From Planctomycetota bacterium (GTDB lineage Bacteria > Planctomycetota > GCA-002687715 > CAIWVZ01), in contig JBGANV010000002.1 in assembly GCA_044222185.1 (NCBI GenBank), positions 320,001 through 384,000 on the forward strand: DNA of 64,000 bases, given 5' to 3'. Every line of letters begins with the position of its first letter. Within the stretch, counting starts at the first letter, position 1. The notes under the pieces were generated by a model, which searched no databases, was not told the DNA's origin, and worked only from the letters and a program-made list of their open reading frames with translations. This document shows, in pieces, positions 8,419 through 31,486 of this stretch. The position numbers and the translations under genes were made by a program.

Positions 8419-8442
8419 ACCGGTTCGACCTGGGTGAGCTGG

Positions 8443-10350
<1,908 letters not shown>

Positions 10351-10554
10351 GCACGAGCTTCAGCAGGCGCGGGACCCGCCAGGGGGCCCGCTTGCGACGC
10401 AAAGGGGAAGTGCGTCTCAACGCCACGAAGGCTGATTTCCGGGTCGCAAGCCTACGGAGCGGACGCTTGCGTGTCGATGGCTCATCCGGAACGACGCCAG
10501 GTTGTTGCGGCCGAGCTGGTGCCAGACGCTCCGCGATCGAATAAACTCGAAACC

Positions 10555-13230
10555 ATGCCCGACAGTCGCCGGAATCTGCGGACTTGCCTGACGGCGCTCG
10601 CCGTGTGCGGGACCCTGTCCGTCGGCGGTGTCGTCGCCTGGTGGCTTCTGTCCGAGCCGGACCTCGCCCGTTCGGACGTGGCGACCTCGGCAGTCGACGC
10701 GCCGGCGATGCTCGGTCAGCTCGAGTCCCGCGCGCACGACGCACCGTCGTCACGGCGGAATCGCATCACGCGAACCGCCGACGCCTCACAGCCCCTCCGC
10801 GGACCGGCCGCGGCCCCACTCTCGGAGATCGCGACGGGATCCGTTCGCCTCCACGTCATCGACGCGGACACGCGGCTCCCGATCGGCGGCGCCGACGTTG
10901 CCGTACGCGACGGCACCCAGGCCCGCACGTTGACGACGAGCGCGGGACCTGACGGTGTCGCCATCGTCGACGAAGTCCCCGCGTCGCGCGGTGCACTCGT
11001 GCGCGTGGTCGCACGCGGCCATGCACCGGTGACGATCGAGAACGTGACCGTCATCAACGGTGAGACGACGGATCTGGGCGACGTCAAACTCGAACACGGA
11101 ATCGGGATCCGCGGTCGAGTCCGGTCCGAGGCCGGCGAGCCCGTTCCCAATGCGCAGGTCTCGCTACACCGAACGCGCGCGCTGAAGACGACGGCGACCT
11201 TCGACCTCGTGGCGATGTACGACGAGATCTGGGAGCCGGCGAAACCCGTCGACGCGACGACGTCCGATGAAACCGGTTCGTTCTGGTTCGCGGCAGTCGG
11301 CAACGGTGACTACACGGCCGAGGTCCGTGCCGCCGGTTTCCAGGTGGCATTCACCGCCCCGTTCGCCGTCCTCCAGGACGTTCCCCCGGATCCGCTCGAC
11401 GTGGTCGTGCAGACGGGCACTCTGTTCAAGGCGCTCGTGAAGAACGAGGCGGGACTGGCGGTCGCGGGTGCCGAGGTCTTGATGCTCCAATCGCCGCGCG
11501 GGCTGCCGTTCAACATGCGGACGCAGAAGACCGCGACGGATGGCGACGGCGCGTTCCAATTCGACACGGCTCCCCTCGAGCCGTTCCAGATCCACATCCG
11601 TGCCGGCGGATTCGCTCCCTACAGCAACACGGAAGTCGTCGCGAAGGTCGACCCGGTCGAGTTCGTTCTGAAGCGCGGGGCGACGATCCAGGGGCGCGTC
11701 TACGACGTCGCGACGTCGAAGGGCCTGGGCGGCGTCCGCGTCGCGGCCGCAGTCGCGAACAAGTTCCAAGGGTTCTCATCCACGATCTCGGCGGACGACG
11801 GTTCCTACACGCTGAAGGACGTGCCAGCAGGGAACCGCGTGACTCTCGTCGCCAAGCGTGGCGGATACGCGCTGTTCCCGCCGCTCGGCGACGAACGCAA
11901 CGCCTTCGGAACCGTCGGCCTCGAGGTCGAAGGCGTGCTCCCGGACTCGATCGCGACGAAGGACATCCCCATGGCGGGGAACAGCGTCGTGACGGGACGA
12001 GTGATCGACGGCGACAGCGGTGCGCCCATCGCAGGCGCGGACGTCATGCTCCTGCGCGGAGGGAACGCCCGTGGGATCGCCCAGTTCCAGGCTCCGACGA
12101 CGCGGTCGGCACTGGACGGCACGTTCACGCTCATGCCGGCGGCGGCGGGAGCGTTCCGCATCTACGCCTGGGCGCCTGGCTACGTTCTCGCGCCGACGGA
12201 CCGCAAGAAGACGTTCGAACCGAACGCCAACGACGTGGCCGCCATGGCGCGCGTCGAGCCGGAGGCGACGCGGAAGGACGTCGAGGTCCGCCTCGTGCGC
12301 GGCACGGAGATCGAAGTCGAGGTTCGCGACGCCAACGGGCGCGGCATCCCCGACGTCTCGCTCCGCTGGACGGATGACGCCGCGCCCTTCGAGCTGAACG
12401 TCATCTCAGAACCCTACCGGCAGGCGACGATGCTGACGGACGCCTCGGGCCACGCCACCTTGGACGGACTTCCTCGATCGAAACGCATCCGCGTGGACGC
12501 GTCGCGCGCGGATTTCACGGCGGGCGGGACGGCGACGGTCGACACGGACGACGGCCAGCTGAAGCGCGCCGAGATCACGATCACCCGGGGCGCGACGATC
12601 ATCGGCCGCGTCTGCAAGCCCGATGGGCGCGGAGCCGCGGGCATTCCCATTCGCTACGTCCCCCGCGCGGGAGCACCGCCGGCGCCGCGCGTGGTGTTTG
12701 GCACGCGCAACGACCCGTACCGGGCGGTGAGCAGCGCCAACGGCTCGTTCGTGCTCGAGGGGATCCGCCAGGGCGACGGCCGGCTGGAACTCGCCACCTC
12801 CGATCCCGAGGGTGTCACCGAGTCGGCGGCGTCACCGCTCGCCTCGCCGGAGAAGTGGCTCCTCGACGCACCGTCCGTGCATCTGCCCGTCTCCGAGGGC
12901 CAGGAGGAACGGATCACGCTCTACATCGTTCCGTCGCTGGCGATCGAGGGGCGCGTGCTCTTCCCCTCGCGGCGTCCGGCCGCGGGCCTTCCCGTGAAAC
13001 TGCGCGGCGAGGGCGTGCTCGCCGCCGTCTCGAAGGAAGTGAAGTCGGACGGAGGCGGCGGGTATCGCTTCGGCGGCTTGCGGCCGGGGCGCTATCGCCT
13101 CTCGACGGAGTACATCCAGAAACCCCCGCCGAATCAGAAGCCGCCCGGTCGCCCGCGGCGCTTCACGGCGGGCCGCTCCGAGCTGGAAGCGGGAACGGGC
13201 AGCGTCGACCTGGTGCTGGTCGGACGATGA
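10555..13230 (+). CDS. Membrane-anchored protein with multiple carboxypeptidase-regulatory-like (prealbumin-like) domains
   Basis: N-terminal TM; repeated GRV.D...G.P(I/V).GA.V...T..DG.F...G(F/Y) units. The real start is ATG 10555; the upstream part of the 1598-aa ORF is antisense to the kinase. Confidence 0.85.
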   Translation: MPDSRRNLRTCLTALAVCGTLSVGGVVAWWLLSEPDLARSDVATSAVDAPAMLGQLESRAHDAPSSRRNRITRTADASQPLRGPAAAPLSEIATGSVRLHVIDADTRLPIGGADVAVRDGTQARTLTTSAGPDGVAIVDEVPASRGALVRVVARGHAPVTIENVTVINGETTDLGDVKLEHGIGIRGRVRSEAGEPVPNAQVSLHRTRALKTTATFDLVAMYDEIWEPAKPVDATTSDETGSFWFAAVGNGDYTAEVRAAGFQVAFTAPFAVLQDVPPDPLDVVVQTGTLFKALVKNEAGLAVAGAEVLMLQSPRGLPFNMRTQKTATDGDGAFQFDTAPLEPFQIHIRAGGFAPYSNTEVVAKVDPVEFVLKRGATIQGRVYDVATSKGLGGVRVAAAVANKFQGFSSTISADDGSYTLKDVPAGNRVTLVAKRGGYALFPPLGDERNAFGTVGLEVEGVLPDSIATKDIPMAGNSVVTGRVIDGDSGAPIAGADVMLLRGGNARGIAQFQAPTTRSALDGTFTLMPAAAGAFRIYAWAPGYVLAPTDRKKTFEPNANDVAAMARVEPEATRKDVEVRLVRGTEIEVEVRDANGRGIPDVSLRWTDDAAPFELNVISEPYRQATMLTDASGHATLDGLPRSKRIRVDASRADFTAGGTATVDTDDGQLKRAEITITRGATIIGRVCKPDGRGAAGIPIRYVPRAGAPPAPRVVFGTRNDPYRAVSSANGSFVLEGIRQGDGRLELATSDPEGVTESAASPLASPEKWLLDAPSVHLPVSEGQEERITLYIVPSLAIEGRVLFPSRRPAAGLPVKLRGEGVLAAVSKEVKSDGGGGYRFGGLRPGRYRLSTEYIQKPPPNQKPPGRPRRFTAGRSELEAGTGSVDLVLVGR

Positions 13231-15672: not shown

Positions 15673-16863
15673 TCAGAACTGCAACGAGTCCGTGTTGCTC
15701 GTGTCGAACACCGTGTTCTGGCCCGAGCCCGTCACGACGACGGCCTGGAACCACAGGGTGAGACCCGTGGGGATCATGGCGTTCGGCGGCAGCGCATGCG
15801 ACCGCGTCAGGGTCCCGCCAGCGGGGATCGTTCCAAACATGTGCATCTGGAGCGGCTGACCCAGGCACAGCGAGAGGCTGCCCGGCGGGAACGACAGTGA
15901 CCCGAGATTGCGCGACTCGACGAGGATCACGTGGCCGCCGGCCGTGCCCGTGACGCTCGTGGTGATCGTGCTGCCCGGCGTCACGACGCCGTCAGGCGTG
16001 ATCGTGAGTTGCACCGTCCCCGGCGTGCACGGAGGTGGAGGCGGAGCGGCGGCGAACGTCACCGTCTGCGTGTTGCTCGTGTCGACGGTGGGTGTCGTCG
16101 CACCGCCCGCGATCGTCACGGCCTGGAAGACGCGGACGGTGCCAGCGGGAGCATTCGCAGGCGTCGGGATCTGGATCGTCCGCGTGCCACTGGCAGGAAG
16201 CGGTCCAAGCGGCTGGCTCGTGAACGGGGCGTTCAGGCAGATGACGGTGCCCGCGAGCGGCCCGCCGCCGGGCCCACCGAGCGTCGTTGCGCCGGCGTTC
16301 GGCCCGCTGAAGAGCACGACGTTCGCACCTGCCGCGCCCGTCACCGTCACCGAGAGCGGAGTGCCGGCCGCCGGGTTGCTCGGCGTCACGGCGAGGACGA
16401 CCGTGCCCGGGTTGCACGTGGGCGGCGGCGGCGGCGGTCCCACCGTGGCCGTGACGACGTTGCTGGTGTCGACGGTGTGCGACGGGGACTGCGGGCCACC
16501 CGTCACCGTCACGGCTTGAAAGTTGACCGTGGCGCCGGCGGTGGAGGGCATGGGAACCTGCACCGTGCGCGTCCCCGACTGGGGCAGCATGCCGATCGAC
16601 ATGGAGTTGAATGGTGACGCGAGGCAGATGACGGTGCCGTTCAACGGCCCTTGCCCGGCCAGTGTCGTCTGACCGAGATTGGGACCACGATAGAGGAACA
16701 CGCCAGCGCCAGCCGTGCCGGTCACCGTGACGTTCACCGGCGCGCCCGCCGCTGGACTCGACGGCGACACCGAGAGCACGACGGAACCCGTCGGGCATTG
16801 GCAGATCGCAGCGGCGGCGATCAGCAACGCGGCTGACACCGAAACGAAATGACTGACCTTCAT
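15673..16863 (-). CDS. Secreted protein made of three tandem ~120-aa beta domains joined by poly-Pro linkers
   Basis: Signal peptide ending AIC-Q; three repeats C.PG/TG.V.L.(V/I)(S/T)P...CL..P...FQAV...DTSN; RBS GGAG. Confidence 0.85.
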   Translation of the reverse strand: MKVSHFVSVSAALLIAAAAICQCPTGSVVLSVSPSSPAAGAPVNVTVTGTAGAGVFLYRGPNLGQTTLAGQGPLNGTVICLASPFNSMSIGMLPQSGTRTVQVPMPSTAGATVNFQAVTVTGGPQSPSHTVDTSNVVTATVGPPPPPPTCNPGTVVLAVTPSNPAAGTPLSVTVTGAAGANVVLFSGPNAGATTLGGPGGGPLAGTVICLNAPFTSQPLGPLPASGTRTIQIPTPANAPAGTVRVFQAVTIAGGATTPTVDTSNTQTVTFAAAPPPPPCTPGTVQLTITPDGVVTPGSTITTSVTGTAGGHVILVESRNLGSLSFPPGSLSLCLGQPLQMHMFGTIPAGGTLTRSHALPPNAMIPTGLTLWFQAVVVTGSGQNTVFDTSNTDSLQF

Positions 16864-18877: not shown

Positions 18878-19717
18878 TCACCCAGGCTTGGTCTCAGTTG
18901 GGATCGCGGCGAGACGGGTGAACGTTCCCGCCTCGTCGACGCTGCCGAACGCGGGCGGTGGGCCCTCGAGCAAGGCGACCCAGTCGGCGGACTCGATCCG
19001 GACGACGTCGATCGACTGGCCGACCTTCGCGGCGAACTCCGCGGTGCCCTGCGCGTCGCGATGGGTGACCGCCACCAAGCGGCGCGTGCGACTCGAGAAG
19101 TCGAGCTCGCGGGCTGCGGCGATGCAGTGCTCACACCCGGGATCGAACACGAACACGTAGGCGTTCGACACTCCCGCGATCCGCACACGATGTTCGACAC
19201 CCGTCGGCGGTGCGCCTGACGCGCAGACCCACGCGACGACGGCGACCACGATGGCACCCGCGGCACTCGTGTGGACGAGCCCGGAGCGGCTCCACTCGCT
19301 GCCGGTCGACAGTCGATGCCAGCGCGCGACGAGCGCGACCGCCAGCAACTCCAACGTCGCGACGACTCCGAGCCATTTCGGCACCGCGGCCCACGCGCCG
19401 AAGCATCCACAACTCGAGCCTCGTGCCCACATCACGAGATGGTGAACGCCCAGGCCCGCAGCGAGGCCGATGGCGCCGCGTGCTCCGACACGGTTTCGGA
19501 CGAACAGCGCGAAGACGCAGGCCAGGGCGTCGACCGCCACGACGATCCCGCCCAGGAGGCGTGCGGGCACGTCGATCCCGTACCCGCTGCGAATCGCATC
19601 GTGAATCTCGGCAGCGGCGACGTGTGGAGCTGCAACCTTGGCGACGAGCGCCACGGCGAAGATCGCGGCCCCGACGAGGCCCGCTGCGGCGATGGCCCTG
19701 GCTCCGTTGATCGTCAC
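18878..19717 (-). CDS. MauE/DoxX family membrane protein fused to a thioredoxin-like CxxC domain
   Basis: 4-5 TM helices with the MauE signature SCGCFG; C-terminal FVFDPGCEHC and a GPPP motif at a possible cis-Pro position; GTG start overlaps the upstream TGA (GTGA). Confidence 0.82.
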   Translation of the reverse strand: MTINGARAIAAAGLVGAAIFAVALVAKVAAPHVAAAEIHDAIRSGYGIDVPARLLGGIVVAVDALACVFALFVRNRVGARGAIGLAAGLGVHHLVMWARGSSCGCFGAWAAVPKWLGVVATLELLAVALVARWHRLSTGSEWSRSGLVHTSAAGAIVVAVVAWVCASGAPPTGVEHRVRIAGVSNAYVFVFDPGCEHCIAAARELDFSSRTRRLVAVTHRDAQGTAEFAAKVGQSIDVVRIESADWVALLEGPPPAFGSVDEAGTFTRLAAIPTETKPG

Positions 19718-20871
19718 GCCGCCGCTCCAGCAGCCTGCCGGCGGCGACGCGCGACGACTCGGGGAACCGCGAACGCGCCCGCGCAGAGAGCGACAACCCC
19801 GAGGGCCCACGCCGCCATGGGGATGGCGTGCGTGTCGCGTCCGGCGCCGAGCTTGGGAGCGCAGGCCGCCAGTCGCTCGATCAGTTCGTCGCCGGAGGTG
19901 GTCCCGTCCGTCGCATAGGACGTCCTGCCCGTTCGACCGTCCAGGATCTTGGCGACGGCACCGAGCTCACGCGCCGGTTCGATGGCGAGCGTCGTGCCCG
20001 CGGGCAGCGGCGCGATGCTCGCCACGTCGACCTTCGACCGCAGCATCCCGAGCCGCGTCCGAAACGAGGCCGCCGTCGGCATCACGACGGGACCGAAGGT
20101 GCGGAAGTCCCCGAATTCGACGACGCGCGCCACTCCACCCTGGATGCCGCCGAGGATCGGAACCACGGGAAAGTCCGGCAGGAGGAGGTCGTTCGGCATG
20201 TTCTCTCCGCCCTCCTGAGGTGCCTTGCAGACGACCGGAGTCTCGAGGAACTCGACGGTCGTGAGTCGCAGTCCTCCGTCGATCCGCTCGAAGTGGCAGC
20301 GCCATCCGAGCAGGCCGGTGACGGCTCGACCGGCCATCGCGGCCTTCACGACCTCCTCGTGGAGTCCGAACAGGACGATCAGTCCCGTGGGCGTTCGCTC
20401 GGCGCTGACGATGGGCGTGCTCTGCACCTGGTCGATCCAGGGCGAGCGCCCGAACGGGCGGAGGTACGCCATCACGGGTGACGTGGACATCTCCACGAAC
20501 TCCTCGTGCGGACGGATGAGCGCGTCGCAGTAGCCTTCACGGCGAGTGTTGAAGATCTGGACGCCGTCGCGCCACGTCGTCACCTGCAGCGGGGTCGATC
20601 CATCCTGCAACGCGAGCTTGGCCCACCGCGCTGCCCCGGTGATCGGATTCCCCTGAACCTCCCACCGGCCGACCTCGTGGACGTTCGAGCCTCCCGCGGC
20701 CGCGGCTTCGCAGCGGTCACGCCATCCGACGTTCCAGGATGGCGCGAGATCGGCCTTCGCGGCCGCGAGCAGGAGAAGCCTCGCCTGCGCGACCGGCAGC
20801 GATTGCGCCGTGGCGCCGGCAGACAGCAGTACGGCCGTGATGACGATCCGAACGTTGTGTTGTCTCGACAT
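19714..20871 (-). CDS. Exported hypothetical protein with C-terminal TM anchor and basic tail
   Basis: RBS GGGGAG, ATG 20871; signal peptide ending ATA-Q; C-terminus AAWALGVVALCAGAFAVPRVVARRRR. Confidence 0.72.
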   Translation of the reverse strand: MSRQHNVRIVITAVLLSAGATAQSLPVAQARLLLLAAAKADLAPSWNVGWRDRCEAAAAGGSNVHEVGRWEVQGNPITGAARWAKLALQDGSTPLQVTTWRDGVQIFNTRREGYCDALIRPHEEFVEMSTSPVMAYLRPFGRSPWIDQVQSTPIVSAERTPTGLIVLFGLHEEVVKAAMAGRAVTGLLGWRCHFERIDGGLRLTTVEFLETPVVCKAPQEGGENMPNDLLLPDFPVVPILGGIQGGVARVVEFGDFRTFGPVVMPTAASFRTRLGMLRSKVDVASIAPLPAGTTLAIEPARELGAVAKILDGRTGRTSYATDGTTSGDELIERLAACAPKLGAGRDTHAIPMAAWALGVVALCAGAFAVPRVVARRRRQAAGAAA

Positions 20872-20885
20872 GACACTCTCCCCGC

Positions 20886-22511
20886 TCACTGCGGTTCCGC
20901 GACGAATGGGACGGCGAACCGTGTCGGCGAACTGGCCTTCACCTTCACGTCGAAATGGATCTCGCCGACCCCCGACTTCGCCACCCATGCGTCAGGGGCA
21001 GCGATCGAGTACTTCCTGGTCCTCCCCGTGACGTCGTTCGCGTTCACGACGACCCCCTGGCCATCGGCCGATACCGCGACGATCTCGGCCCCCTCGGGAA
21101 CGTCCACCGTGAACTCGCCCGACCAGCCGTGGTCGACCGTTCTCGCGAGGCGAACCACGTCCGGCGTCACGCCGAGTGGCTGAACGACGTTCCAGCGCAC
21201 GACGGTGTCGAGGCTCGTCTGCCCGACGTATGCCGTGATCGCCGCCGACCCAGGTCCAAGTCCGAACGGCTTCACCACGACCTCGGCCATCGTCGCCGTC
21301 GGAAGTTCGGCGACGGGGATTTCCGTCCTTCCATCCGTTCGGATGACCAGCGTCCCGGCACGCTCGACGACCCACGAGATCGGTCCGATCGTCGCCGACG
21401 GCCCCGCCAGGGCGCGTGCACCGTCCGTGAAATGGAGCAGGACCTTCCGCGACGACTCGACGCCAGGCGGGATGTCTCCGAGGTCGATGCTGCCTGCGAG
21501 TTCGAGGCCCTGCACGCGGGCGGCCGGCAGATGAACGGTCACCGTCGTGAGCTTCCCGTCGTCCTGCCGGAAGAACACCAGGATCGTCCGGGGCGTGTTC
21601 GCGACCTCGACATCGAGCGTGCAGACGCGTCGCTCGCCTGGTTCGAGCGGCTTGTCCGTGTGAAAGACGTAGGACGCGCACGTGCAGGACGCGAGCACGC
21701 GGTCGAACTTCACCGGCGACGGGGACTCGTTGACGACCGTGATGTCGTACTTCTGCCGTCCGATGAGCTTGGTGTCGACGGTGATGTCGAGGCCTGGCTC
21801 GAAGCGGAGACCACCGGTGTGTCCCGGCCGGCAGCCACCGAGTGCGACCGTCACCGCGGCGACCGCTGCCACGACTGCCGGACGAAGGCGGAGGTGGCGG
21901 AACTGCCACGCGAGTCCGAGGGCTCCCATCGCGAGGAGGGCAAGCGAGATCCCGCGGCCCCAGGTCATGCGTGGTGGGACTTCGCACAGCAGCATGGCGG
22001 GCAGCAGGTCACCTTTGAACTTCGGCCAGTACGATCCACCGGCGAACATCGGCGGATCGAAGTAGTCGACGCGGTCTCCCCCCGTTCCTCGAATCACGAG
22101 GAAGTGGGCCGGGTTGTCTCCACCGGCGGGGTGTCGGCGGGCGACGATCGCGATCTGATCCGCGGATGGAGCCTCGATGGGCCGCGCCGTCGCGCGAACT
22201 CCGTGCTGGCCCAGAACGCGCTGGATGTCGGCCATCGAGCAAAGGCCCGAAGCGCCGATCCCGAGTTCCTTCTTCAACTCGTCGAAGCCTGGAGAGGCAA
22301 CGTTCAGCAAGGACAGCGCGACGCCGGCGGAATAGGCGCCGCAGTCCTGCTCGAGAACGGCGCCGCGCGGGGTGGCGGTCTCCTGGCCCAAGCCAGCGAC
22401 GACGACTAGCGCGAGAGCGAGCGCCGACCGGAGCGAGATGCACGCGAGCCATCCGTCCTCTCGCATGGCGCGGCGTGCACGAGCAATCTGAGGGGTCGAT
22501 GTTGAGAACAT
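20886..22511 (-). CDS. Exported C39-like cysteine peptidase fused to DUF1573/Ig-like domains
   Basis: QDCGAYS (Cys), SMADI, HFLVI (His), YFDPP (Asp); TM followed by a second hydrophobic stretch ending LGG-C; DUF1573 motif N.S..PV....V.ASCTC......LEPGE; RBS GAGGTG before ATG 22511. Confidence 0.85.
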   Translation of the reverse strand: MFSTSTPQIARARRAMREDGWLACISLRSALALALVVVAGLGQETATPRGAVLEQDCGAYSAGVALSLLNVASPGFDELKKELGIGASGLCSMADIQRVLGQHGVRATARPIEAPSADQIAIVARRHPAGGDNPAHFLVIRGTGGDRVDYFDPPMFAGGSYWPKFKGDLLPAMLLCEVPPRMTWGRGISLALLAMGALGLAWQFRHLRLRPAVVAAVAAVTVALGGCRPGHTGGLRFEPGLDITVDTKLIGRQKYDITVVNESPSPVKFDRVLASCTCASYVFHTDKPLEPGERRVCTLDVEVANTPRTILVFFRQDDGKLTTVTVHLPAARVQGLELAGSIDLGDIPPGVESSRKVLLHFTDGARALAGPSATIGPISWVVERAGTLVIRTDGRTEIPVAELPTATMAEVVVKPFGLGPGSAAITAYVGQTSLDTVVRWNVVQPLGVTPDVVRLARTVDHGWSGEFTVDVPEGAEIVAVSADGQGVVVNANDVTGRTRKYSIAAPDAWVAKSGVGEIHFDVKVKASSPTRFAVPFVAEPQ

Positions 22512-22557
22512 GGGGTTCACCTCGCATGAGTCCCGAAGAGCACCGCGTCCACCCGTC

Positions 22558-24930
22558 TCAGGGCGACGTCTGGAGCACGCAGCGCACCGCCGCGGGCCAC
22601 GTCGCCTGGATGGTTCGTGCCGCCGGCATCAGCCAGCGCGACGCGAGATCGAGCGATCGAACGGGCCATCGGCCGATGCGGTCAACGAGAAGGCGGCACT
22701 GCGCAGTCGCCGTTACACCTTCGGGGGCGAGATCGTGAGTGTCGCGAGCCGGCACGGCCCGGAGGCCCGACGGCCCGCTCCTCACCTCGCGAACGTCGAG
22801 CGTCGGACCGCCGACGCAGACGAGGACCGGCATCACGGGATGGCAGCCCAGCAGGAGCGAGTCGCCCGTTCGGAGGACGGGCGCCAACATCACCCCGCAA
22901 TCGAGGTCGTAGGCCGCCAAGACCAGCTCGTGCTCGAGGAGCGGTCCGTCGAGCTGGACCCGCTGTTGCGCGCTGCTTTCCGGAAGTTGCCAATCGCCAC
23001 GCGTGGGTAGCTCAGAGCCTGGAACGAAGAGCGCGGTGGAACCGCAGCGCAGGCGAAGTCCCTGGCCCCCGCATCGGCGGACTCGCAAGGTCCCCGATGG
23101 ATCCGTCCGGACGACCGCCTCGTGAAACGCGACCGCAGGTACGACCGACACGACGACGTCGCAGGATGCGAGGGGCGCTCCACCGTGGCCCCTGATGGTG
23201 ATCTCGAGAGCCGGGCCCGCATCTCCGCCGACCCGGCCCAGGTCGACGACGGCGTCCGTCTCGACGTTCACCTTGCGAGACCAGAGGCTCCCATCGTCGA
23301 AGCGCGCCGCGACGACGTACTCACCCGGCGTGAGAGCGTCGAAGCGGAACGCCGTTCGGGGCTCCACACGGCGCTCCCTGTGCATCGTCGACCACGCATC
23401 CGCGGTGGGAATCACCGCGACGACACCGGACGCCCCGGCAACTCCGCAGACGCTGCCCGCACCGACGTCGTCGAGCGAGATCTGCGCCGTCTCTCCGTCT
23501 CGGACGACGAGTCGGCGGGAGACGCCCAGGCCATCCACGACCAGGGTGTAGGTGCCCGGCGGAAGCCAGTATTCGCGCGCATTCCCATCGATGCGATTCG
23601 CCGCTGCGACGGCCCCATACCTCGTTTCCAGGAGGGCGAGGCGGCGTGACTCCAATCGTGACGGGTCCGCGCTCGTGACGCGAACGCGCCCGCCGAAGTC
23701 ACCGAGCTCGATGGCGCGCGGCGCAGCGGACGCGAGCGCACCGACCTGGAAGGGTCGACTCACGCCTTGGAATCCAAAGAATCGGACGGGATCCGTGGGA
23801 TCGGGCCGGCGGCCGAGCACGACCGTGACGAGGCCATCGCCGTCCGTCCGCGCCTTCACCAGCTCCGCGCCGATCGACGCCTGGACGATTCCGTGGGAGA
23901 TCGACTGCGCCCCCGTGACGAGTCGAGCGCGCAGCGCTTCGATCGCGCCGAATTCCAGGAATGCGACGCGACCCTCGTCGGCGTCCGTCGGTGTCGCGTT
24001 CGCGCGGATCACGGCAGCGCCGTTCATGCGGACGGCACCCGTGATCGTCCGAGTCTCGGGGTCCTGGACCTCGAGCATTCCCATCCCGAACCTCAGGTCG
24101 ACGGGGCCGCGGCCCACGGACACCGAATCGGCTTGGATGTCGACATCGGTGAGCGTCGTGTGCTCGAAGCTCGCCAAGGCTGGAACGCTGACCGTCACGG
24201 CAAGGACGCGCGTCGCCTGGATTCGGATCAGCAGGTCCGTCTCACCGGGCGTCACACGCTCGCGGACGCGCACGATCCCATCCCGAGTCGCCTCGACGAA
24301 TGCGGAATCGAACGAACGGACGCCCTCGTACCGGAACGCGCCCTGCGCGTCCGCGGTCGTTGGATACATCCGGTCGGACGTGACGAGCGCGATCCGGGCC
24401 CCACCCGCGGGAGCACCGGCGGCGTCGACGACTCGGCCGGCGACGGACGTCGACCCCTTCAGCCCGACGACGACGCGATTCTGCCCGCAGTCGAGCGACA
24501 GATTCCGTTCCGCATCGGCGTAGCGGTGATGACGCACGACGAGCCGCACGCAATCGTCGACGCGCTCGACGTCGAGTCGCGCCCGGCCGGCTCCGTCGGT
24601 GAGCGCGATCGGTGGCGCGGATGGGGGATTCGAGAAGCTCGCAACGACGGTGGCTCCTTCGATCGGGTCGAGGGTCGATTCGTCGCGGACGACGACGTCG
24701 ATCGACCCGCTACCGGGGCCAGCGAACGGTCGCGGGCGCACGGATGCCGCGGTCGGGTGTCTCCACGTGTCCGTCGCGCTCGCAAGGTCGCCGAGCGCAG
24801 CGGACGGAGACGGGAGGTCGGTCCGCGTCGGCGCCGACCCGGTGTCGTCCATCACGGCGGCCGTCGCCAGGAGCGTTGCAACGAGTGCCGCGGCCGGGAG
24901 CCACGTCACCGCGCGAGGTCGTTTCGTCAT
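22558..24930 (-). CDS. Carboxypeptidase-regulatory-like domain protein, N-terminally anchored/exported
   Basis: RBS AGGAGG, ATG 24930; hydrophobic N-terminus; VVRDESTLDPIEGATV, AGRVVDAAGAPAGGARI...TTADAQGAFRYEGV, FDALTPGEY. Confidence 0.75.
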   Translation of the reverse strand: MTKRPRAVTWLPAAALVATLLATAAVMDDTGSAPTRTDLPSPSAALGDLASATDTWRHPTAASVRPRPFAGPGSGSIDVVVRDESTLDPIEGATVVASFSNPPSAPPIALTDGAGRARLDVERVDDCVRLVVRHHRYADAERNLSLDCGQNRVVVGLKGSTSVAGRVVDAAGAPAGGARIALVTSDRMYPTTADAQGAFRYEGVRSFDSAFVEATRDGIVRVRERVTPGETDLLIRIQATRVLAVTVSVPALASFEHTTLTDVDIQADSVSVGRGPVDLRFGMGMLEVQDPETRTITGAVRMNGAAVIRANATPTDADEGRVAFLEFGAIEALRARLVTGAQSISHGIVQASIGAELVKARTDGDGLVTVVLGRRPDPTDPVRFFGFQGVSRPFQVGALASAAPRAIELGDFGGRVRVTSADPSRLESRRLALLETRYGAVAAANRIDGNAREYWLPPGTYTLVVDGLGVSRRLVVRDGETAQISLDDVGAGSVCGVAGASGVVAVIPTADAWSTMHRERRVEPRTAFRFDALTPGEYVVAARFDDGSLWSRKVNVETDAVVDLGRVGGDAGPALEITIRGHGGAPLASCDVVVSVVPAVAFHEAVVRTDPSGTLRVRRCGGQGLRLRCGSTALFVPGSELPTRGDWQLPESSAQQRVQLDGPLLEHELVLAAYDLDCGVMLAPVLRTGDSLLLGCHPVMPVLVCVGGPTLDVREVRSGPSGLRAVPARDTHDLAPEGVTATAQCRLLVDRIGRWPVRSLDLASRWLMPAARTIQATWPAAVRCVLQTSP

Positions 24931-25030
24931 GTTCCCCTCCTGGGCCGCGGGGAGCGACGCGTCGCGGGTCACCGGCGCATCGCCCACCGCCGACGTCGAG
25001 GACGGACGCCCCGATCGAGCCGTCACGAGT

Positions 25031-25549
25031 TCAGCCGCAGCTGAAGGCCGCACACGGCATGGTCGCGTTCGGGACGGGAACGCACGCCGCGCCGATGCAG
25101 AGGTGCGTCGTCTTGCCGGGTGCGCACGTGACTCCGGAGTCCGTCGCGGTGATCGTGCAGCTCCCCTGCCCGGCCGTTCCGCAGTCCAGGATCGTCGCGT
25201 TCGGGTCACACGAGCTCGGCTCGTTCGAGGTGGTGCAGAACTTCACGTACTTCTCGTTGTTGCAACCACTCGATGGACACGTCTGCTGCGTGTAGGGGCA
25301 CGGTCCGCACGAACGCGTGTTCTTGTTGCAGTACGAGCCGCGCTGCATCCAGGACGTGCAGCTCTCGTTGCCTGGCCAGCACTGCTTGTACACGAGCGTC
25401 AAGCCGCCTCCGGCGACCTGCCCGCCGATGATCCCGCCGAGCGACAGACCGTCCTTCGAATCCGGGCCGCTCTCCGGTGCGCCATTCATCAGGCCAAGAA
25501 CGCCCGAAATGACCAACGCCGCACTCGCGACGAACTTGATGGAATTCAT
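25031..25549 (-). CDS. Small secreted cysteine-rich protein (16 Cys), putative double-glycine precursor
   Basis: RBS GGAGG, ATG 25549; 172 aa; signal peptide, then PESGPDSKDGLSLGGIIGGQVAGG, then a region containing all 16 Cys. The composition is unlike a GC-rich shadow ORF. Confidence 0.85.
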   Translation of the reverse strand: MNSIKFVASAALVISGVLGLMNGAPESGPDSKDGLSLGGIIGGQVAGGGLTLVYKQCWPGNESCTSWMQRGSYCNKNTRSCGPCPYTQQTCPSSGCNNEKYVKFCTTSNEPSSCDPNATILDCGTAGQGSCTITATDSGVTCAPGKTTHLCIGAACVPVPNATMPCAAFSCG

Positions 25550-25981: not shown

Positions 25982-26908
25982 CTATTTCGAGAACTTGTTG
26001 GCCTTGCGATTGCCGAGTCGAAGCTTGTCCTCGAGATGCGAGCGAAGCGCGGCGTAGAAGTCTCGCAGGAAGCGATCGACGTCGACCTTGCGCGGGTCGC
26101 CATCCCAGCGAATGCGCTGCTGGATGCGCTCGGCGACGGCTCGGCGCGTCACCTGGGCGTCGACGGCATCGTCACGGCGCAGGACCTGTTCGAGCACCTG
26201 AAGCTCGTACTCGCCGTAGATCGCCAGCTGCGGGGGCGTGAACTCGTATCGCGCCGCGGTCGCCGCCTTCCGTGTCGCCCGACTCAGGTCCGCAAGCAAC
26301 GTCGCCTTCGGAGCGAGGACCACGCGCGTCCCACCCACCAGATCGCCGATGCGGAGCCGGTCCCGGTTGAAGATCGGCAAGCCCATGAAGATGAGGAGCC
26401 AGACCAGGGCGGCGAATCGCAACCACCCTGGCACCCCGGGGAAGAACGTGCTCGACCCGAACGTGAGAGCGAGCGGGAGGACCACCTCCACGTTTCGAAC
26501 GAGGTTGCGGGCGAAGATCGCCTCCGACAGCAGTTGGCCGCCGCGCGCATCGATCACCCGCAGACCGAGCATGCGCTTGCCCGGCGTCCGGCCCTGCCAG
26601 CGGATCTCGAACCACGGAAAGTAGGCGTTGATCAACAGGAACACGCCCAGGGTTGCGACGGTCATTCCCACCTCGCCCGAGGCCATCGCCGACGCCACCG
26701 CGAGCGTCACCACGAGAACGAGCGCGAGAACGATGATCACGGCATCCACGAGGAACGCCGCCGCCCGCTCGCCCGCGGACGCCAGAGTCACGCAGATCGG
26801 TACACCCTCGGGCGTGATGATCTCGCGCATTCGCAACGCGCGTGCGAATTCACCGACGCTCGCCCCGGGGATCAAGTGCGGCCCGTGGCCGGCGGCGACG
26901 GGCCTCAC
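25982..26908 (-). CDS. RDD family protein
   Basis: TPEGVPI...ASAGERAAAFLVD, GRTPGKRMLGLRVI, RIGDLVGGTRVV; GTG 26908 overlaps the spoIIM-like stop. Confidence 0.9.
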   Translation of the reverse strand: MRPVAAGHGPHLIPGASVGEFARALRMREIITPEGVPICVTLASAGERAAAFLVDAVIIVLALVLVVTLAVASAMASGEVGMTVATLGVFLLINAYFPWFEIRWQGRTPGKRMLGLRVIDARGGQLLSEAIFARNLVRNVEVVLPLALTFGSSTFFPGVPGWLRFAALVWLLIFMGLPIFNRDRLRIGDLVGGTRVVLAPKATLLADLSRATRKAATAARYEFTPPQLAIYGEYELQVLEQVLRRDDAVDAQVTRRAVAERIQQRIRWDGDPRKVDVDRFLRDFYAALRSHLEDKLRLGNRKANKFSK

Positions 26909-27894
26909 GCGGCCCTCCGCATGGGCCGTACGCCCAGGTAGAGGTACCACGCACAGGCGAACGCGAGCGCGACGGTCCATCGCACGGACGTGCTGGTGAC
27001 GGCCCCGCGAAACACGCCCTCCATCACGCCTGCGATCAGGAACATGACCATGGCTCCCGTCGCCACGCGGCCGGCTTCACGGCCGGCGACGAGCAGATTG
27101 TCGACCCGACTCATCCGGCCTGGAAACACCAACGCCTGACCGAGGACGAGTCCCGCGCCGCCACACAGGATGATCGCCAGGATCTCCGTGACCCCGTGAG
27201 GCAAAACCCATCCCCAGAACTCCACGCTCAGGCCGCGCGACATGAAGAGTGCGCCAAACGCCCCGAGCATGAGCCCATTCGTGAACATCAGGTACAGCGT
27301 GATGATTCCCCCCGCGAAGCCCAGCGCGAACGACCAGATCCCGATCTGCGCGTTGTGCGTGAAGAGCATGGTGGCGAATCCGCCGCTCGCCGACGCCTGG
27401 AAGAGCGTCGACCGCAGCGTCTCGGTCGACGCCGTCGGATCGCGACCCGAGGCGAGGTCGGCATCCACGAACGAGTAGAACCACTCGGGATCGCGTGCCG
27501 TCAGCACCCAACTCGTCAACCCACCGATGAGGAAGAGGCTCCAGGCCAGAAGCATGTGGTTTCGGTAGCGCCGAACGGCGGAGGGGAATCCCCACCGGAC
27601 GAACTCGCCCACGACGGCGAACGGATGGCGGCGAGTTCCATACACGCAGAAGTATGCCCGAAGCGTGAGCGCTTCCAGGTACTCGACCAGGTTGCGGTCC
27701 AGGGAGATCGCGCGCGCGAGGCTGAGGGACGACACGGCCTGACGGTAGAGGCGCGGCAGGTCGGAGAGATCCTCCGGTGCGAGGCCGCGGACGTTCCGCG
27801 AGCGCTCCGCGCGTTGCACGAGCTCTTCCAGCCGTTGCCAGGACGCCTGACGCTCGTGTCGGAATTGGAAGCTCTTCAGTCCCGCGTCGTCCAT
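26905..27894 (-). CDS. Stage II sporulation protein M (SpoIIM/DUF95) family membrane protein
   Basis: LYRQAVSSLSLAR, LFTHNAQI, NGLMLGA, LPHGVTEILAI, AGVMEG; TGATG coupling with DUF58. Confidence 0.9.
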   Translation of the reverse strand: MDDAGLKSFQFRHERQASWQRLEELVQRAERSRNVRGLAPEDLSDLPRLYRQAVSSLSLARAISLDRNLVEYLEALTLRAYFCVYGTRRHPFAVVGEFVRWGFPSAVRRYRNHMLLAWSLFLIGGLTSWVLTARDPEWFYSFVDADLASGRDPTASTETLRSTLFQASASGGFATMLFTHNAQIGIWSFALGFAGGIITLYLMFTNGLMLGAFGALFMSRGLSVEFWGWVLPHGVTEILAIILCGGAGLVLGQALVFPGRMSRVDNLLVAGREAGRVATGAMVMFLIAGVMEGVFRGAVTSTSVRWTVALAFACAWYLYLGVRPMRRAA

Positions 27895-29204
27895 CAGATC
27901 CGCTCCCGCCGCTTGATGTCGAGATAGGTCGAGAGGAGCTGCGCCGAGAGCTCGCCCGGGGCGCACTCGAGGCACATGGCGCCCGCGCGTCGGAGCCGCG
28001 TGAAGACGACCTCGCGCTCGCGGAGGAAGTCGCCGGCGACGGCGGCCCTGTGAACGTCCTCCATTGCCTGGAACGGCGCCTGGACGAGGGCAGTGAGCGC
28101 CGGATCACGCATGGACACGAAGAGTACGAGATGCCGCGTGGCGAGGTGTCCCACGGTTTCGAGCATGAGGCGCGCAGCCACGTCATCCACGAAGTCGGTC
28201 AACAAGACGACGAGCGACCGCCGCCGGAGCCGCGTACCCAGGACCGAGATCGCCAGCGTGTAATTCGATTCGTCCGTCGAGTACGCGAGCTCGCTCGACC
28301 TCTGCCGCAGAAGCCCGAAGCTCTTCGCGCCAGAGACGGGCTCGACCCAGGACCCTGGACGCGCGCCGAACGAATACAGTCCGATGCGATCGCCGCTCCG
28401 CAGCCCGCCCCAGGCGAGGAGGAGTCCGGCGGTGATCGCGTGGTCGAGCCGAGGCACACCGTTCAGGGGCTCGGCCATGAGGTGCCCCGTGTCGATGGCG
28501 ATCACGACCTGCTGATCGCGCTCGGCACGGAACTCCTGGCTGAGGAGCTTGCGGTGACGCGCCGAGGCCTTCCAGCTTATGGCTCGGTGATCGAGGCCTG
28601 GCACGTAATCCCGGAGCGAGTCGAACTCCGATCCTTCCCCGACGAACCGCATGCGCTTCGGCCCGAACCAGGCTTCGCGATTGCGCGCCACCGTGATCGC
28701 CGCCGTGTGCACGGGTTTCAGGTTCGGAACCACGATGACCTCGTGCGCGGTGTTCACCAGTTTGCGGCGTTCGAAGAGGCCGAACGGGCCTTGCCAGCGC
28801 AGCCACACTCGCTCGATCCGGCCGACACCCCGACGGCGCGCCATCAGCGGAACGGAAGCAAGGGCACGCCCGTCCGCACCCGTCGTCACGACGACGCCCG
28901 CGATCGGAGCGAAGAGCTCGTTGACCTCGCAGAGCATGGCCAGCCGGAGCCGCGAGCGCGACCCGGCGATGATGGTGACGTGGCACGCTCCGGCGGAACC
29001 GATCTCCAACGACTTCGGCGCCTGCGACTCGACGATCACGCGAGCGGCCGGCACCGCGAGCGTCAGGTCGATGACCATGAGGGCGACGATCAGCGCGGTC
29101 ACGGCAACCGCGGCGAGCCACAGCCCCGGCGCCACGAGCGCGGGAAGCAACGCCACGGGCAGCGCGGCGAGGAGGAGAAGGACGGCTCGGATCGTCGGGA
29201 CCAT
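27894..29204 (-). CDS. DUF58 domain protein (vWA-like, MoxR partner)
   Basis: GSEFDSLRDYVPGLDHRAISWKASAR, IDTGHLM, RRSLVVLLTDF. Confidence 0.92.
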   Translation of the reverse strand: MVPTIRAVLLLLAALPVALLPALVAPGLWLAAVAVTALIVALMVIDLTLAVPAARVIVESQAPKSLEIGSAGACHVTIIAGSRSRLRLAMLCEVNELFAPIAGVVVTTGADGRALASVPLMARRRGVGRIERVWLRWQGPFGLFERRKLVNTAHEVIVVPNLKPVHTAAITVARNREAWFGPKRMRFVGEGSEFDSLRDYVPGLDHRAISWKASARHRKLLSQEFRAERDQQVVIAIDTGHLMAEPLNGVPRLDHAITAGLLLAWGGLRSGDRIGLYSFGARPGSWVEPVSGAKSFGLLRQRSSELAYSTDESNYTLAISVLGTRLRRRSLVVLLTDFVDDVAARLMLETVGHLATRHLVLFVSMRDPALTALVQAPFQAMEDVHRAAVAGDFLREREVVFTRLRRAGAMCLECAPGELSAQLLSTYLDIKRRERI

Positions 29205-29210
29205 GCTGTT

Positions 29211-30167
29211 TCAGCGTGGAGCGGGAACTTCCGCCAGCACCTGCCCGATCACCGCCTCCGGCGCGATGCCGTCGATCTCGGCACTGGGCGACATCAGGAT
29301 GCGGTGGCGCAACGCCGGCAGCGCCACGCGCTTCACGTCGTCAGGTACGACGAACTCGCGCCCGTCGAGGGCTGCCGCCGCGCGACTCGCCGTCGTCAAC
29401 ATGTTCGTCGATCGCGGCGACGCCCCGCAGAGCAGCGAGCTGTTCTGCCGCGTCGCTCGCACGATGTCGACGGCGTAGTCGATGATGGGATCGGCCAGCG
29501 TGATGTTCGCCAGAGCCGCGCGGGCCTCCGAGAGCGCCGGGCCGTCGGCCACGGGCGTCACGCCGAACGCGTGCGGATCCGCGAGCACCGTTCGGCTTCC
29601 GTGCAGGCGGACCATGGCGCGCTCCTCGTCCCGCGACGGATACCCAACCGGGATCTTGAACATGAAGCGGTCGAGCTGAGCTTCGGGGAGCGGATAGGTG
29701 CCCTCCTGTTCGATGGGGTTCTGCGTGGCGATGACGAGGAACCACGCGCCGAGCGGATGCGTCTTTCCGTCGATCGACACCGCCTGCTCCTGCATCGCCT
29801 GGAGGAGCGCCGCCTGCGTCTTCGGCGGCGTACGGTTGATCTCGTCTGCGAGGAGGAGGTCCGTGAAGATCGGCCCTTTCACCAAGGAGAAGGTGTTCGA
29901 CTGGAAGTTGAACAGGTTCGTGCCGAGGACGTCGCCCGGCATGAGGTCCGGGGTGAACTGGATTCGATTGAACGCCAGTGCGAGTGCCGATGCGAACGAA
30001 CGCGCGAGCAGCGTCTTCGCCGTTCCCGGCACGCCTTCCAGGAGGACGTGGCCGTTGCACAACAACGCCATCATGAAGAGATCGATGGCGTCGTCGTGAC
30101 CGACGATCACCTTGCGGACCTCCGCGCGCAGGCGTTCACCGAGGGCTTGGATCTCGACGGGGGTCAT
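29211..30167 (-). CDS. MoxR family AAA+ ATPase
   Basis: [65 protein letters not shown]; RBS AGGAG, ATG 30167. Confidence 0.96.
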
Positions 30168-31486
30168 AAGTCTCCTGATGAGGATTGGACCGCGCCGGCG
30201 TCGCGAGGCAGGGCGGGTGTTCGTGACGTGGTGATGCGGCCTTTGTGTGCAAGTCCCCGGGGATCGAACTCCCGGGCCCACTGCTGGAGGCGGCGTGCGA
30301 GTTCGAGGAAGGTGTCGGGCGACGCCTTGCGGTCACGGCGCGCGGCGCCGATCTCTCCCGTCAACTTCGCGAAGTCGTCGGTCGTACCACGGGCCATCCC
30401 CAGTCGGGCGAGCGCCGGAACCAGAGTCTTGCGGTCGCCACGCAGATCGGCCGGCACCTGGCGAGCCGCCTCGTGCGTCACCTGATCGAGGATCCGGCGC
30501 AGGGACTCACCGTGGTGGCCCGCATGCGCGAGCAGTGACGCGGTGTTCTCGATGAGGAATGCCTTGCCCACCTCGAAGGGCGGAGCGAGCGGCGCAGGCG
30601 ATCCGAATCGGCGAGCTCCGGCCCACAACGCGAGCACCGCCGCGAGGAGGAACTGCACCGTGGCGACCACCAGGGGAAACTCGAAGAGCGTTCGGAAGAA
30701 CGACGTGGGCCGCACGAAGCCATGGATCGTCTCGTCGATGACGATGGGAGACCACCGTGTGGACCGGACCCGGTCGATGATCTTCAACGCCAGCGCGGCG
30801 TTGTCCCCGGCGTGCAGGCCATGGTTCTCGAAGATGTCGGGATCGGAGACGACGACGAGATGGGTTCCATCCACCTCGGTCTCGCCCACGAGGATCTGGC
30901 CGGCATTCGAGAGGATCGGTTTCAACGCGCCGGACCGGAGGAGTTGCGGCTGGGTCAACGTCGGGCGGGGGAAATCACCGGTCCATGCGTCGACCATCAC
31001 CGGCGCCGGCACCACGGTGACGCCGCGAACGAACGGCACGAGCACGCCCTCGATCGCCCGGATCGGTATGGGCGTGACCTTCTCCACCTCGGTCTCGTTG
31101 GTGGGGCTCGGGAATCCCCGCCATTTCGGAAGCACGAGCAGGACCTCGCTCGCTTCCCGCACGATCGCTGCGAGAGCACTCGCGTGAGTCGCGCCACCCG
31201 AAGTCACGTTCGGCTCCAGGACCACGACGGCGCCGTCCTCGCCGGCGCGCTCCACCGATCTGGCACGGCTCGTGATCACCGGGAGTTTCATCTCGCGCAG
31301 CAGCTCGACGAACGCGTGATGCCCGATGGCGGAGCGGCTGTACCCATTGGCCGCGACGGCCTGTTCGGCGTTCTCCGACCTGGCCAGGGTCCCAGCGGCG
31401 AAAGCGCAAACGAGGGAGACCACTCCCGACGTCACGAGGATCCCGGTCATACGGCGGGAGAAGATCGGTGGGTCTGAGTCGGTCAC
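30164..31486 (-). CDS. DUF4350 domain membrane protein
   Basis: N-terminal [36 protein letters not shown] then RRFG; typical position upstream of MoxR. Confidence 0.82.

Follow-up and report, generated by a model that had tools for sequence, protein, structure and literature searches.

A candidate Sec-dependent maturation system in Planctomycetota with C39-DUF1573 proteins and cysteine-rich double-glycine precursors

C39 peptidases and double-glycine (GG) leaders are taken to indicate cleavage in the cytoplasm that is coupled to export by an ATP-binding cassette (ABC) transporter, and genome-mining tools use the pairing of leader and C39 peptidase to find bacteriocins and ribosomally synthesised and post-translationally modified peptides (RiPPs). 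MauE and MauD are needed to mature the disulfide-rich small subunit of methylamine dehydrogenase. Here we describe a cluster of five genes (g1 to g5, positions 18878-25549) with likenesses to both. It lies in a 64,000-nt stretch of a Planctomycetota genome (contig JBGANV010000002.1, positions 320,001 to 384,000, assembly GCA_044222185.1), which we refer to as the window. We consider it moderately probable that the cluster is a Sec-dependent maturation system in which a predicted disulfide-rich secreted protein is cleaved outside the cytoplasm. That the genes form one functional module can be said with good confidence.

No description of such a system was found in the literature, although an earlier one is possible in subscription journals, which were mostly outside the search. 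No paper joining DUF1573 and C39 was found, and searches on periplasmic or Sec-dependent C39, on Planctomycetes and double-glycine, on C39 with VKOR and thioredoxin, and on MauE with thioredoxin and Cys-rich precursors returned nothing relevant. In the available text of PMC3482391, C39-like domains appear only as toxin domains.

The cluster consists of five co-directional open reading frames (ORFs) on the minus strand. g1 (25031-25549, 172 aa, 16 Cys) starts with ATG and has a GGAGGA 5 nt upstream. It is followed by g2 (22558-24930, 790 aa), which is preceded by the Shine-Dalgarno sequence AGGAGGGG, by g3 (20886-22511, 541 aa), which is identical to the database protein P0001, by g4 (19714-20871, 385 aa) and by g5 (18878-19717, 279 aa), which starts with GTG. 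Spacers of 100 nt (g1-g2), 46 nt (g2-g3) and 14 nt (g3-g4) and a GTGA overlap shared by g4 and g5 correspond exactly to what a first-pass annotation of the sequence had described. That annotation assigned an export signal or a transmembrane (TM) segment to every product. Hydropathy gives hydrophobic segments at the N-termini of g1 to g4, two TMs inside g3, one TM at the C-terminus of g4 and at least four TMs in g5.

An ABC transporter was sought within ~15 kb of the cluster and a RiPP-type modifying or peptide-tailoring enzyme among the five genes. As annotated before, neither was found there or in the 14 flanking ORFs tested (3.4-37 kb of the window). The window's own genome (93.8% complete) has no match to Pfam Peptidase_C39 (PF03412) at E ≤ 0.01. 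Because both the protease and its putative substrates carry signal-like segments and an ABC transporter is missing, cleavage would take place after export and not during it. The former label RiPP-like overstates the case: with ~100-140 aa the products are proteins, and apart from thiol-redox parts the cluster has no modifying enzyme.

Putative precursors with double-glycine leaders in related loci

The ORF and its hydropathy agree with the annotation of g1: 172 aa, of which 16 are Cys, and a signal-like N-terminus. Residues 1-23 (25481-25549, minus strand) resemble a signal peptide, with K5 preceding a hydrophobic stretch (hydropathy 1.8-1.9 across aa 3-24). Then follow a predicted pro-region, aa 24-43 (25421-25480, minus strand), which was delimited by a position matrix and ends with GLSLGGIIGG, and a predicted mature domain, aa 44-172 (25034-25420, minus strand), which was assigned from the alignment of the Cys family and holds the 16 Cys. 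All of them are located after residue 56, i.e. downstream of the Gly-rich pro-region, whose Gly-rich stretch reads GLSLGGIIGGQVAGGG (aa 34-49). The pro-region had formerly been identified by a QVAGG string. This string does exist at aa 44-48; the best-scoring double-glycine site, evaluated with a matrix of 16 leaders from other loci, is positioned after G42-G43 (IIGG/QVAGGG, predicted cut at the slash), and G38-G39 and G47-G48 are further candidates.

In contigs of two sludge runs from one other study the codons 26 and 32 (25454-25475) are altered, resulting in E26A and K32I. These are the sole amino-acid changes of g1 there, and both fall within the linker leading from the signal segment to the Gly-rich leader.

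The mature part of g1 has no relative in Pfam or NCBIfam and no usable match in the ESM Atlas. A search for homologous proteins returned only the query itself, with g1 as well as with g3, and the AlphaFold2 model of g1 (predicted local distance difference test score, pLDDT, 31.4) is unusable. With tblastn a homologue of g1 was detected at the same position of a related cluster in genome G013 (35% identity, E 2e-18). This genome belongs to another family of the same order and repeats the full five-gene order (tblastn E 1e-47 for g3, 1e-31 for g4, 4e-21 for g5).

Three sets of genomes were searched with the g3 family profile. Within the phylum (401 genomes), 238 genomes matched at E ≤ 1e-5, nearly all of them through proteins with DUF1573 only or through PCAT transporters. 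The distant family f7 (151 genomes) gave 18 matching genomes at E ≤ 1e-20, and the window's class (23 genomes) gave matches in G000 and G013 only. Altogether 25 loci were examined, of which L078 and L079 were dropped as containing a DUF1573 protein only, and L044, L047 and L081 are not assessable because the contig ends beside the gene. Related-locus searches of genome contigs and metagenome contigs found nothing.

A precursor-like ORF, i.e. one with a hydrophobic N-terminus, G-G (once G-A) about 20-30 residues further on and then 9-16 Cys, lies beside the protease gene in 16 of the 21 assessable loci, the window included. These are the window, L008, L039, L040, L042, L043, L045, L046, L068, L070-L074, L076 and L077. 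The ORF is on the same strand as the protease gene and next to or near it; in L074 it is located downstream. The expectation that homologous loci carry variable, Cys-rich secreted ORFs with a GG pro-leader was thus borne out. The mature parts in the window, L008, L039 and L043 form one family with 11 invariant Cys (alignment A5), and those of the remaining precursors differ widely.

The 16 leaders from other loci share the consensus R-T/P-L-S/T-x-x-E-L/M-x-x-I/V-x-G-G. Counted back from the predicted cut, Gly occupies position -1 in 15/16 and position -2 in all 16 leaders, I/V/L is found at -4 (13/16), L/M at -7 (12/16), E at -8 (11/16), S/T at -11 (13/16), L at -12 (11/16) and R at -14 (8/16). 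Examples are PLSLDQLQAVTGG/GDCEGC, RTLSTAEMHSIVGG/LIEDRCC and MSHEEQLSTVGG/QD, again with the predicted cut at the slash. This consensus coincides with the textbook one for double-glycine leaders, as known from class II bacteriocins and PCAT substrates. Unlike those leaders, which sit at the extreme N-terminus, the leader in g1 and related precursors is preceded by a hydrophobic segment of at least 12 residues. The window leader is best described, on this alignment, as a degenerate version of the motif that is clear in other loci.

Locus L042 (G114:C1), from a complete genome with 46% GC, contains two tandem paralogous precursor genes (7125-7580 and 7632-8093) encoding 10 Cys each, with nearly identical leaders (PLSLDQLQAVTGG and PLSFEQLHAITGG).

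The background of such ORFs was evaluated with strict precursor criteria, namely a hydrophobic N-terminus, G-[GAS] with hydrophobic residues at -4 and -7, and at least 6 Cys thereafter. A six-frame search of the window's own 7.08-Mb genome with these criteria yields only 6 ORFs (~0.85 per Mb), of which g1 is one and shows the highest Cys count. Hence the arrangement is not due to chance. No ABC transporter was found among 60 neighbour proteins of nine related loci. The related loci are flanked by DUF1559/N-methyl proteins, which are typical of Planctomycetota.

Domains and predicted topology of the g3 family

The g3 family was assembled by an exhaustive HMMER search of 1,835,955,588 representative proteins. 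It is rare, with 41 matches at E ≤ 1e-3, 18 at ≤ 1e-10 and 4 at ≤ 1e-30. The 19 matches of ~490-560 aa which cover most of the length were aligned (A1); the other 22, being shorter or matching with only one half, were left out. The layout of g3 comprises a signal-like N-terminus, a C39-like domain, a TM hairpin, a lipobox-like Cys, DUF1573 and a further region resembling immunoglobulin (Ig) domains. C57, H136, P154, N261, C276 and C278 are invariant in 19/19 members, and C227 is kept in at least 90%.

The C39-like protease domain was delimited by family alignment and profile to aa ~45-200 (21912-22379, minus strand). Searched against solved proteases, the family profile finds LahT150 (6mpz, E 4e-7), PCAT1 (4ry2, 1e-5) and ComA (3k8u, 1.5e-5). 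The family motifs dCGa and HFvV (DCGAY and HFLV in g3) are in register with the catalytic CG and HFVV of 6mpz and 4ry2, and also with ComA. The predicted catalytic residues are thus Cys57 (22341-22343, minus strand) and His136 (22104-22106, minus strand). PF03412 matches 11/19 members at E ≤ 0.01 (best 8.7e-16), PF07610 (DUF1573) matches 16/19 at the same threshold (best 2.5e-10), and a HYDIN/VesB-like Ig domain is matched in 7/19. A PDB search with g3 alone gave a chance match only. The C39 and DUF1573 labels of g3 gain their support only from the family profile, given that its single scores are below the Pfam cut-offs. Of the domain names assigned in the first-pass annotation, CarboxypepD_reg is above threshold, and C39, DUF1573 and MauE are sub-threshold in the window proteins alone. 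Based on the family comparison, g3 is a predicted C39-like protease fused to DUF1573.

A hydrophobic segment ahead of the C39 domain, usually with Arg or Lys before it, is found in 18/19 members, in agreement with the C39 protein having been annotated as exported. After the C39 domain, again in 18/19 members, two hydrophobic segments enclose a basic loop (consensus RRRR), and the second of them ends in a lipobox-like [LV]-x-G-C. In g3 this region comprises aa 187-227 (21831-21953, minus strand), with the basic loop RHLRLR and the end LGGC, of which Cys227 (21831-21833, minus strand) is the lipobox-like residue. Basic residues are found on the cytoplasmic side of membrane segments (positive-inside rule). 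Given this rule, the pattern of basic residues would place the C39 domain outside the cytoplasmic membrane, together with the DUF1573 region.

Locus L045 possesses a split form. There the C39 protein comprises 201 aa (Pfam C39 E 8.5e-10), with a signal-like segment at the N-terminus and a TM followed by a basic tail at the C-terminus; DUF1573 is encoded separately, in a protein that begins with a lipoprotein-type signal of its own. This supports the predicted outward topology. The fused g3, too, may become lipidated, and signal peptidase II may cleave it into a membrane-bound C39 part and a lipoprotein with DUF1573. Such a predicted split would mirror the split gene pairs in f7.

In L008 (G013:C41) the g3 orthologue (9377-10522, minus strand) begins at the equivalent of residue ~117. 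No remnant of the lost N-terminus was found in other frames upstream. A masked run of 100 bases (11037-11136) lies inside the g2 gene of the same locus.

The DUF1573-like Ig domain is located at aa 253-305 of g3 (21597-21755, minus strand; weak match to Pfam PF07610). It contains C276-x-C278 (21678-21686, minus strand), which is invariant in 19/19 members with the consensus SSCGC. Pairs of selenocysteine and cysteine mark redox-active sites. DUF1573 (PF07610) is listed among prokaryotic selenoproteins, with the motif UGC, in two reviews (PMC9312934 and PMC13188914). This motif agrees with the SSCGC consensus of the family. Since a selenocysteine/cysteine pair marks redox sites, the CxC of DUF1573 is a putative thiol-disulfide site and would represent a second candidate redox site of the cluster besides g5, one that the first-pass annotation had overlooked. 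If so, it would explain how many-Cys cargo is matured at loci without a MauE-thioredoxin protein.

Partner genes and surroundings

g2 matches CarboxypepD_reg (PF13620) in two stretches with 63.7 bits (cut-off 32.3, E 2e-17). CarboxypepD_reg proteins were found in 5 of the 10 first loci (the window and nine others), with equivalents in L008, L039, L041 and L043. CarboxypepD_reg, which the first-pass annotation had listed as a part of the system, is accordingly not found throughout.

g4 belongs to no known family. Its N-terminus is signal-like and its C-terminus has a TM and an RRRR tail, and homologues are present at the G013, G304 and G322 loci. A protein of ~330-480 aa with a signal-like N-terminus is encoded beside the protease gene in most loci. 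Of these middle proteins, those of the window, L008, L039 and L043 are members of the g4 family; elsewhere at least two other subfamilies occur. Six middle proteins of the latter kind were aligned (A3) and show the same layout, including the C-terminal TM anchor and basic tail; comparing them with the g4 family (A2) by hhalign gave no homology (probability 0.8%). The AlphaFold2 model of g4, based on a 4-row alignment, is unusable (mean pLDDT 41.3). In the ESM Atlas the nearest entries to g4 are unnamed Planctomycetota clusters (0.94), and its neighbours are mostly from that phylum; the resemblance to LolA/TP_0789-like clusters (0.85) is a weak lead only.

g5 matches Pfam MauE (PF07291) at model positions 7-127 of 128 with 23.8 bits, below the cut-off of 27 (E 6e-5). 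It carries a CGCFG motif in the MauE-like membrane domain and CEHC (aa 195-198) in a C-terminal, thioredoxin-like region. The orthologue in G013 is 31% identical (MauE 21.2 bits) and conserves CGCFG and P-x-CEHC. For the C-terminal region no thioredoxin match was obtained in Pfam, NCBIfam or PDB, and the name derives from P-x-CEHC in these two sequences.

Taken together, the comparison of loci suggests that genes of the g2 and g5 type are lineage-specific accessories and not core. The conserved core is accordingly made up of the putative precursor, the signal-like middle protein of ~330-480 aa (with a C-terminal TM anchor where aligned) and the predicted C39(-DUF1573) gene.

An NCBIfam scan of all five proteins yielded no meaningful match. 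A scan of the locus for promoters and terminators gave 0 promoter-like sites and terminator-like sites at background level, and the 100-nt spacer between g1 and g2 folds no better than shuffled sequences (z 0.98). DNA nearly identical to the locus was found in metagenomes of activated sludge and bioreactors from several studies.

Upstream, the cluster is bordered by a spacer of 430 nt and then an unrelated gene set. This set, MoxR AAA ATPase / DUF58 / DUF4350 / SpoIIM / RDD (25982-31486, minus strand), is not kept beside the cluster in G013. The downstream border is a convergent aldehyde-dehydrogenase gene. Two further ORFs of the window were noted. One (15673-16863, minus strand) encodes a secreted protein of 396 aa with three repeats of ~120 aa that are separated by poly-proline linkers and each have conserved Cys; the protein has no Pfam match. 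The other (8434-13230, plus strand), ~6 kb from the cluster and on the opposite strand, encodes 1598 aa with six CarboxypepD_reg stretches (Pfam E 1e-58) and resembles a much larger paralogue of g2.

In other loci, too, neighbours were recorded. At L046 (G237:C113, 1417-2738) a gene for an extracytoplasmic function (ECF) sigma factor and a Cys-rich ORF are located just upstream of the precursor module. The latter may encode an anti-sigma factor, hinting at regulation of the envelope-stress type in L046. At L040 (G293:C4, 4544-5041) a gene for a SUKH-4 immunity protein (Pfam E 1e-18) lies ~2.7 kb upstream of the precursor, which may be a coincidence or hint at a conflict-system neighbourhood.

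Proposed route, alternatives and comparison with known systems

Based on these data we propose the following route. The signal-like segment at the N-terminus of g1 would either direct its export via Sec or anchor it. g1 would then be cut at its double-glycine site, with G42-G43 as the best candidate, by the C39-like domain of g3 (Cys57/His136) on the outer side of the cytoplasmic membrane, and the 16-Cys domain would thereby be freed from the pro-region or membrane anchor. g3 would be held by its own N-terminal signal or anchor and by the TM hairpin, with the basic loop in the cytoplasm. Its DUF1573 half, possibly lipidated at Cys227, would face outward as well and present the CxC as candidate redox site. 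This CxC, and in the window lineage also g5, would handle disulfide formation or isomerisation; in that lineage only, g5 would contribute a redox relay in the membrane to help the 16-Cys product fold. g4 is a putative partner, perhaps an escort, chaperone or immunity protein, and g2 a predicted lineage-variable accessory. The first-pass reading is hence partly supported: its core was seemingly right, and it has to be revised as to accessory parts and cleavage site.

A number of observations weigh against this route. The g1 leader matches the consensus weakly, scoring 4.2 compared to 10-33 for most others. It retains only L(-7), I(-4) and GG and lacks the E at -8, and the leaders of its clade-mates score low too (L008 -7.2, L039 2.4). 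Window g3 alone stays below the Pfam cut-offs, both for PF03412 (15.2 bits, cut-off 22, E 0.02) and for PF07610 (15.6-16.6 bits, cut-off 26.1, E 0.008-0.017). C39 proteases employ Asp as third residue of the triad and an oxyanion Gln upstream of the Cys. In the g3 family the classical Asp position (DP) varies between D, S, N, T and W, and the family alignment has no conserved Gln upstream of the Cys; window g3 itself has D152 (FDPP) and Q55, neither of them in a conserved column. Of the catalytic triad expected from the annotation, Cys and His therefore align with PCAT, LahT and ComA, and the Asp column is not conserved. The predicted outward topology derives from hydropathy and the positive-inside rule.

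Further points concern the distribution. The system is patchy (2/23 genomes of the class), and the MauE-like/CxxC protein is limited to the window and G013 among the loci examined. L041 encodes a 14-Cys secreted protein without recognisable GG, L082 shows GR (...LRGR) instead of GG, and L069, L075 and L080 have no precursor within the DNA examined. In f7, several protease genes are interrupted by in-frame stops or exist as separate genes for C39 and DUF1573. Moreover G013, the only fully syntenic relative, has a g3 without the first ~115 residues, so that signal segment and catalytic Cys are gone, and nevertheless retains g1, g2, g4 and g5.

Among the alternatives, the one that survives best is compatible with the proposed route and differs only in the purpose of the product. 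The mature Cys-rich protein would be a secreted antimicrobial, i.e. a large bacteriocin, that the C39 step activates outside, and g4 and its counterparts would provide immunity. Mature domains that are highly variable between loci next to conserved leaders, the tandem paralogues in L042, the patchy distribution and the fact that double-glycine leaders are typical of bacteriocins all fit. So do middle-protein subfamilies which lack detectable mutual homology and roughly track the precursor type, although this co-variation could simply reflect phylogeny. As the proteins resemble no known toxin or immunity family and the cluster encodes no outer-membrane route, we regard this purpose as rather unlikely.

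It is a good deal less likely that the C39-like domain does not cleave g1 at all. It could be a non-proteolytic recognition module, as is the C39-like domain of HlyB-type transporters, or have another substrate (such as g2 or itself), and g1 would be an ordinary Sec-secreted protein with a Gly-rich linker. The weak leader of the window, the lack of conservation of the classical Asp and Gln, the retention of the four other genes in G013 and the three loci without identifiable precursor point in this direction. Non-catalytic C39-like domains, however, are not known to have the Cys, whereas Cys57 and His136 are invariant in 19/19 members of the g3 family. It is also difficult to account in any other way for the canonical L-12/E-8/L-7/I-4/GG leader that most loci show next to the protease gene.

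An inverted topology is very improbable. Here a cytoplasmic C39 would remove the whole N-terminal region before an unlinked transporter exports the product, analogously to PCATs, and indeed no characterised C39 leader peptidase is known to act outside the cytoplasm. However, the basic residues before the first and between the later hydrophobic segments put C39 and DUF1573 outside, and the DUF1573 partners in split loci have lipoprotein-type signals. Moreover, cytoplasmic removal of the precursor's signal would block export, no ABC transporter was found among the flanking ORFs tested or the neighbour proteins of nine related loci, and the genome (93.8% complete) has no PF03412 match at E ≤ 0.01. 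That the genes are chance neighbours which do not work together is scarcely credible: the MauE-thioredoxin and CarboxypepD_reg proteins are indeed not conserved partners, but the five-gene synteny recurs in G013, the module of precursor, middle protein and protease recurs in two distant families of the phylum, the gaps are tight with two genes overlapping, and the background of precursor-like ORFs is as low as ~0.85 per Mb.

Going beyond the Sec-dependent route as such, we tentatively propose, at somewhat less than even chances, a Sec-dependent counterpart of PCAT, probably in Planctomycetota. It would combine an outward-facing, membrane-anchored C39 leader peptidase, dedicated to proteins with a canonical double-glycine leader behind a signal segment, with a fused or paired Ig-like DUF1573 module, of which the CxC (selenocysteine-x-Cys in some relatives) would be a new periplasmic disulfide catalyst. 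It would mature hypervariable disulfide-rich cargo (toxins, adhesins or surface fibres) with partner membrane proteins as escort or immunity factors. If the proposed system proves true, a known leader/protease pair has been re-used for a different secretion logic, and a class of large Cys-rich secreted proteins missed by current miners becomes visible. The widespread DUF1573, including its selenoprotein form, would gain a testable proposed role in thiol-redox chemistry. In addition, the system is predicted to offer a simple tool, a periplasmic and sequence-specific pro-peptide protease.

The closest described systems are PCAT/AMS (ComA, LahT, PCAT1), which share the protease fold family with g3, including the aligned catalytic Cys and His. 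Their substrates show the same leader consensus (L-12, E-8, L/M-7, I/V-4, GG) as the precursors from most other loci. In contrast to PCATs, neither g3 nor its neighbours contain ABC domains, and the protease of the g3 family carries a signal-like N-terminus of its own. Its predicted orientation is opposite to that of the cytoplasmic C39 of PCATs, and it does not conserve the classical Asp and Gln. Unlike PCAT substrates, the precursors carry a signal-like segment ahead of the leader, and their Cys-rich cargo protein comprises ~100-140 aa.

A second likeness is that to MauE/MauD, as g5 contains a MauE-like membrane domain together with a CxxC thioredoxin-like region and is encoded beside the gene for a small protein with many Cys. 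In contrast to MauE/MauD, both parts are fused in g5, no mau genes are present and the Pfam MauE scores are sub-threshold; the parallel holds only for the window lineage (2 loci). DUF1573 proteins, including the selenocysteine form UGC, share with the g3 family the domain with the invariant C-x-C, and the fusion to C39 sets the latter apart. Finally, LapG/LapA, exosortase/PEP-CTERM, rhombosortase/GlyGly-CTERM and sortase/LPXTG follow a similar logic, in which a short motif is positioned beside a membrane-anchoring segment of a Sec-exported protein and is recognised by a periplasmic or membrane-associated protease, so that the protein is released or re-routed. Protease families and motifs are others there. 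Unlike in LapG, exosortase, rhombosortase and sortase systems, the putative signal described here is N-terminal and not C-terminal, consisting of hydrophobic segment plus GG, and the predicted protease is C39-like.

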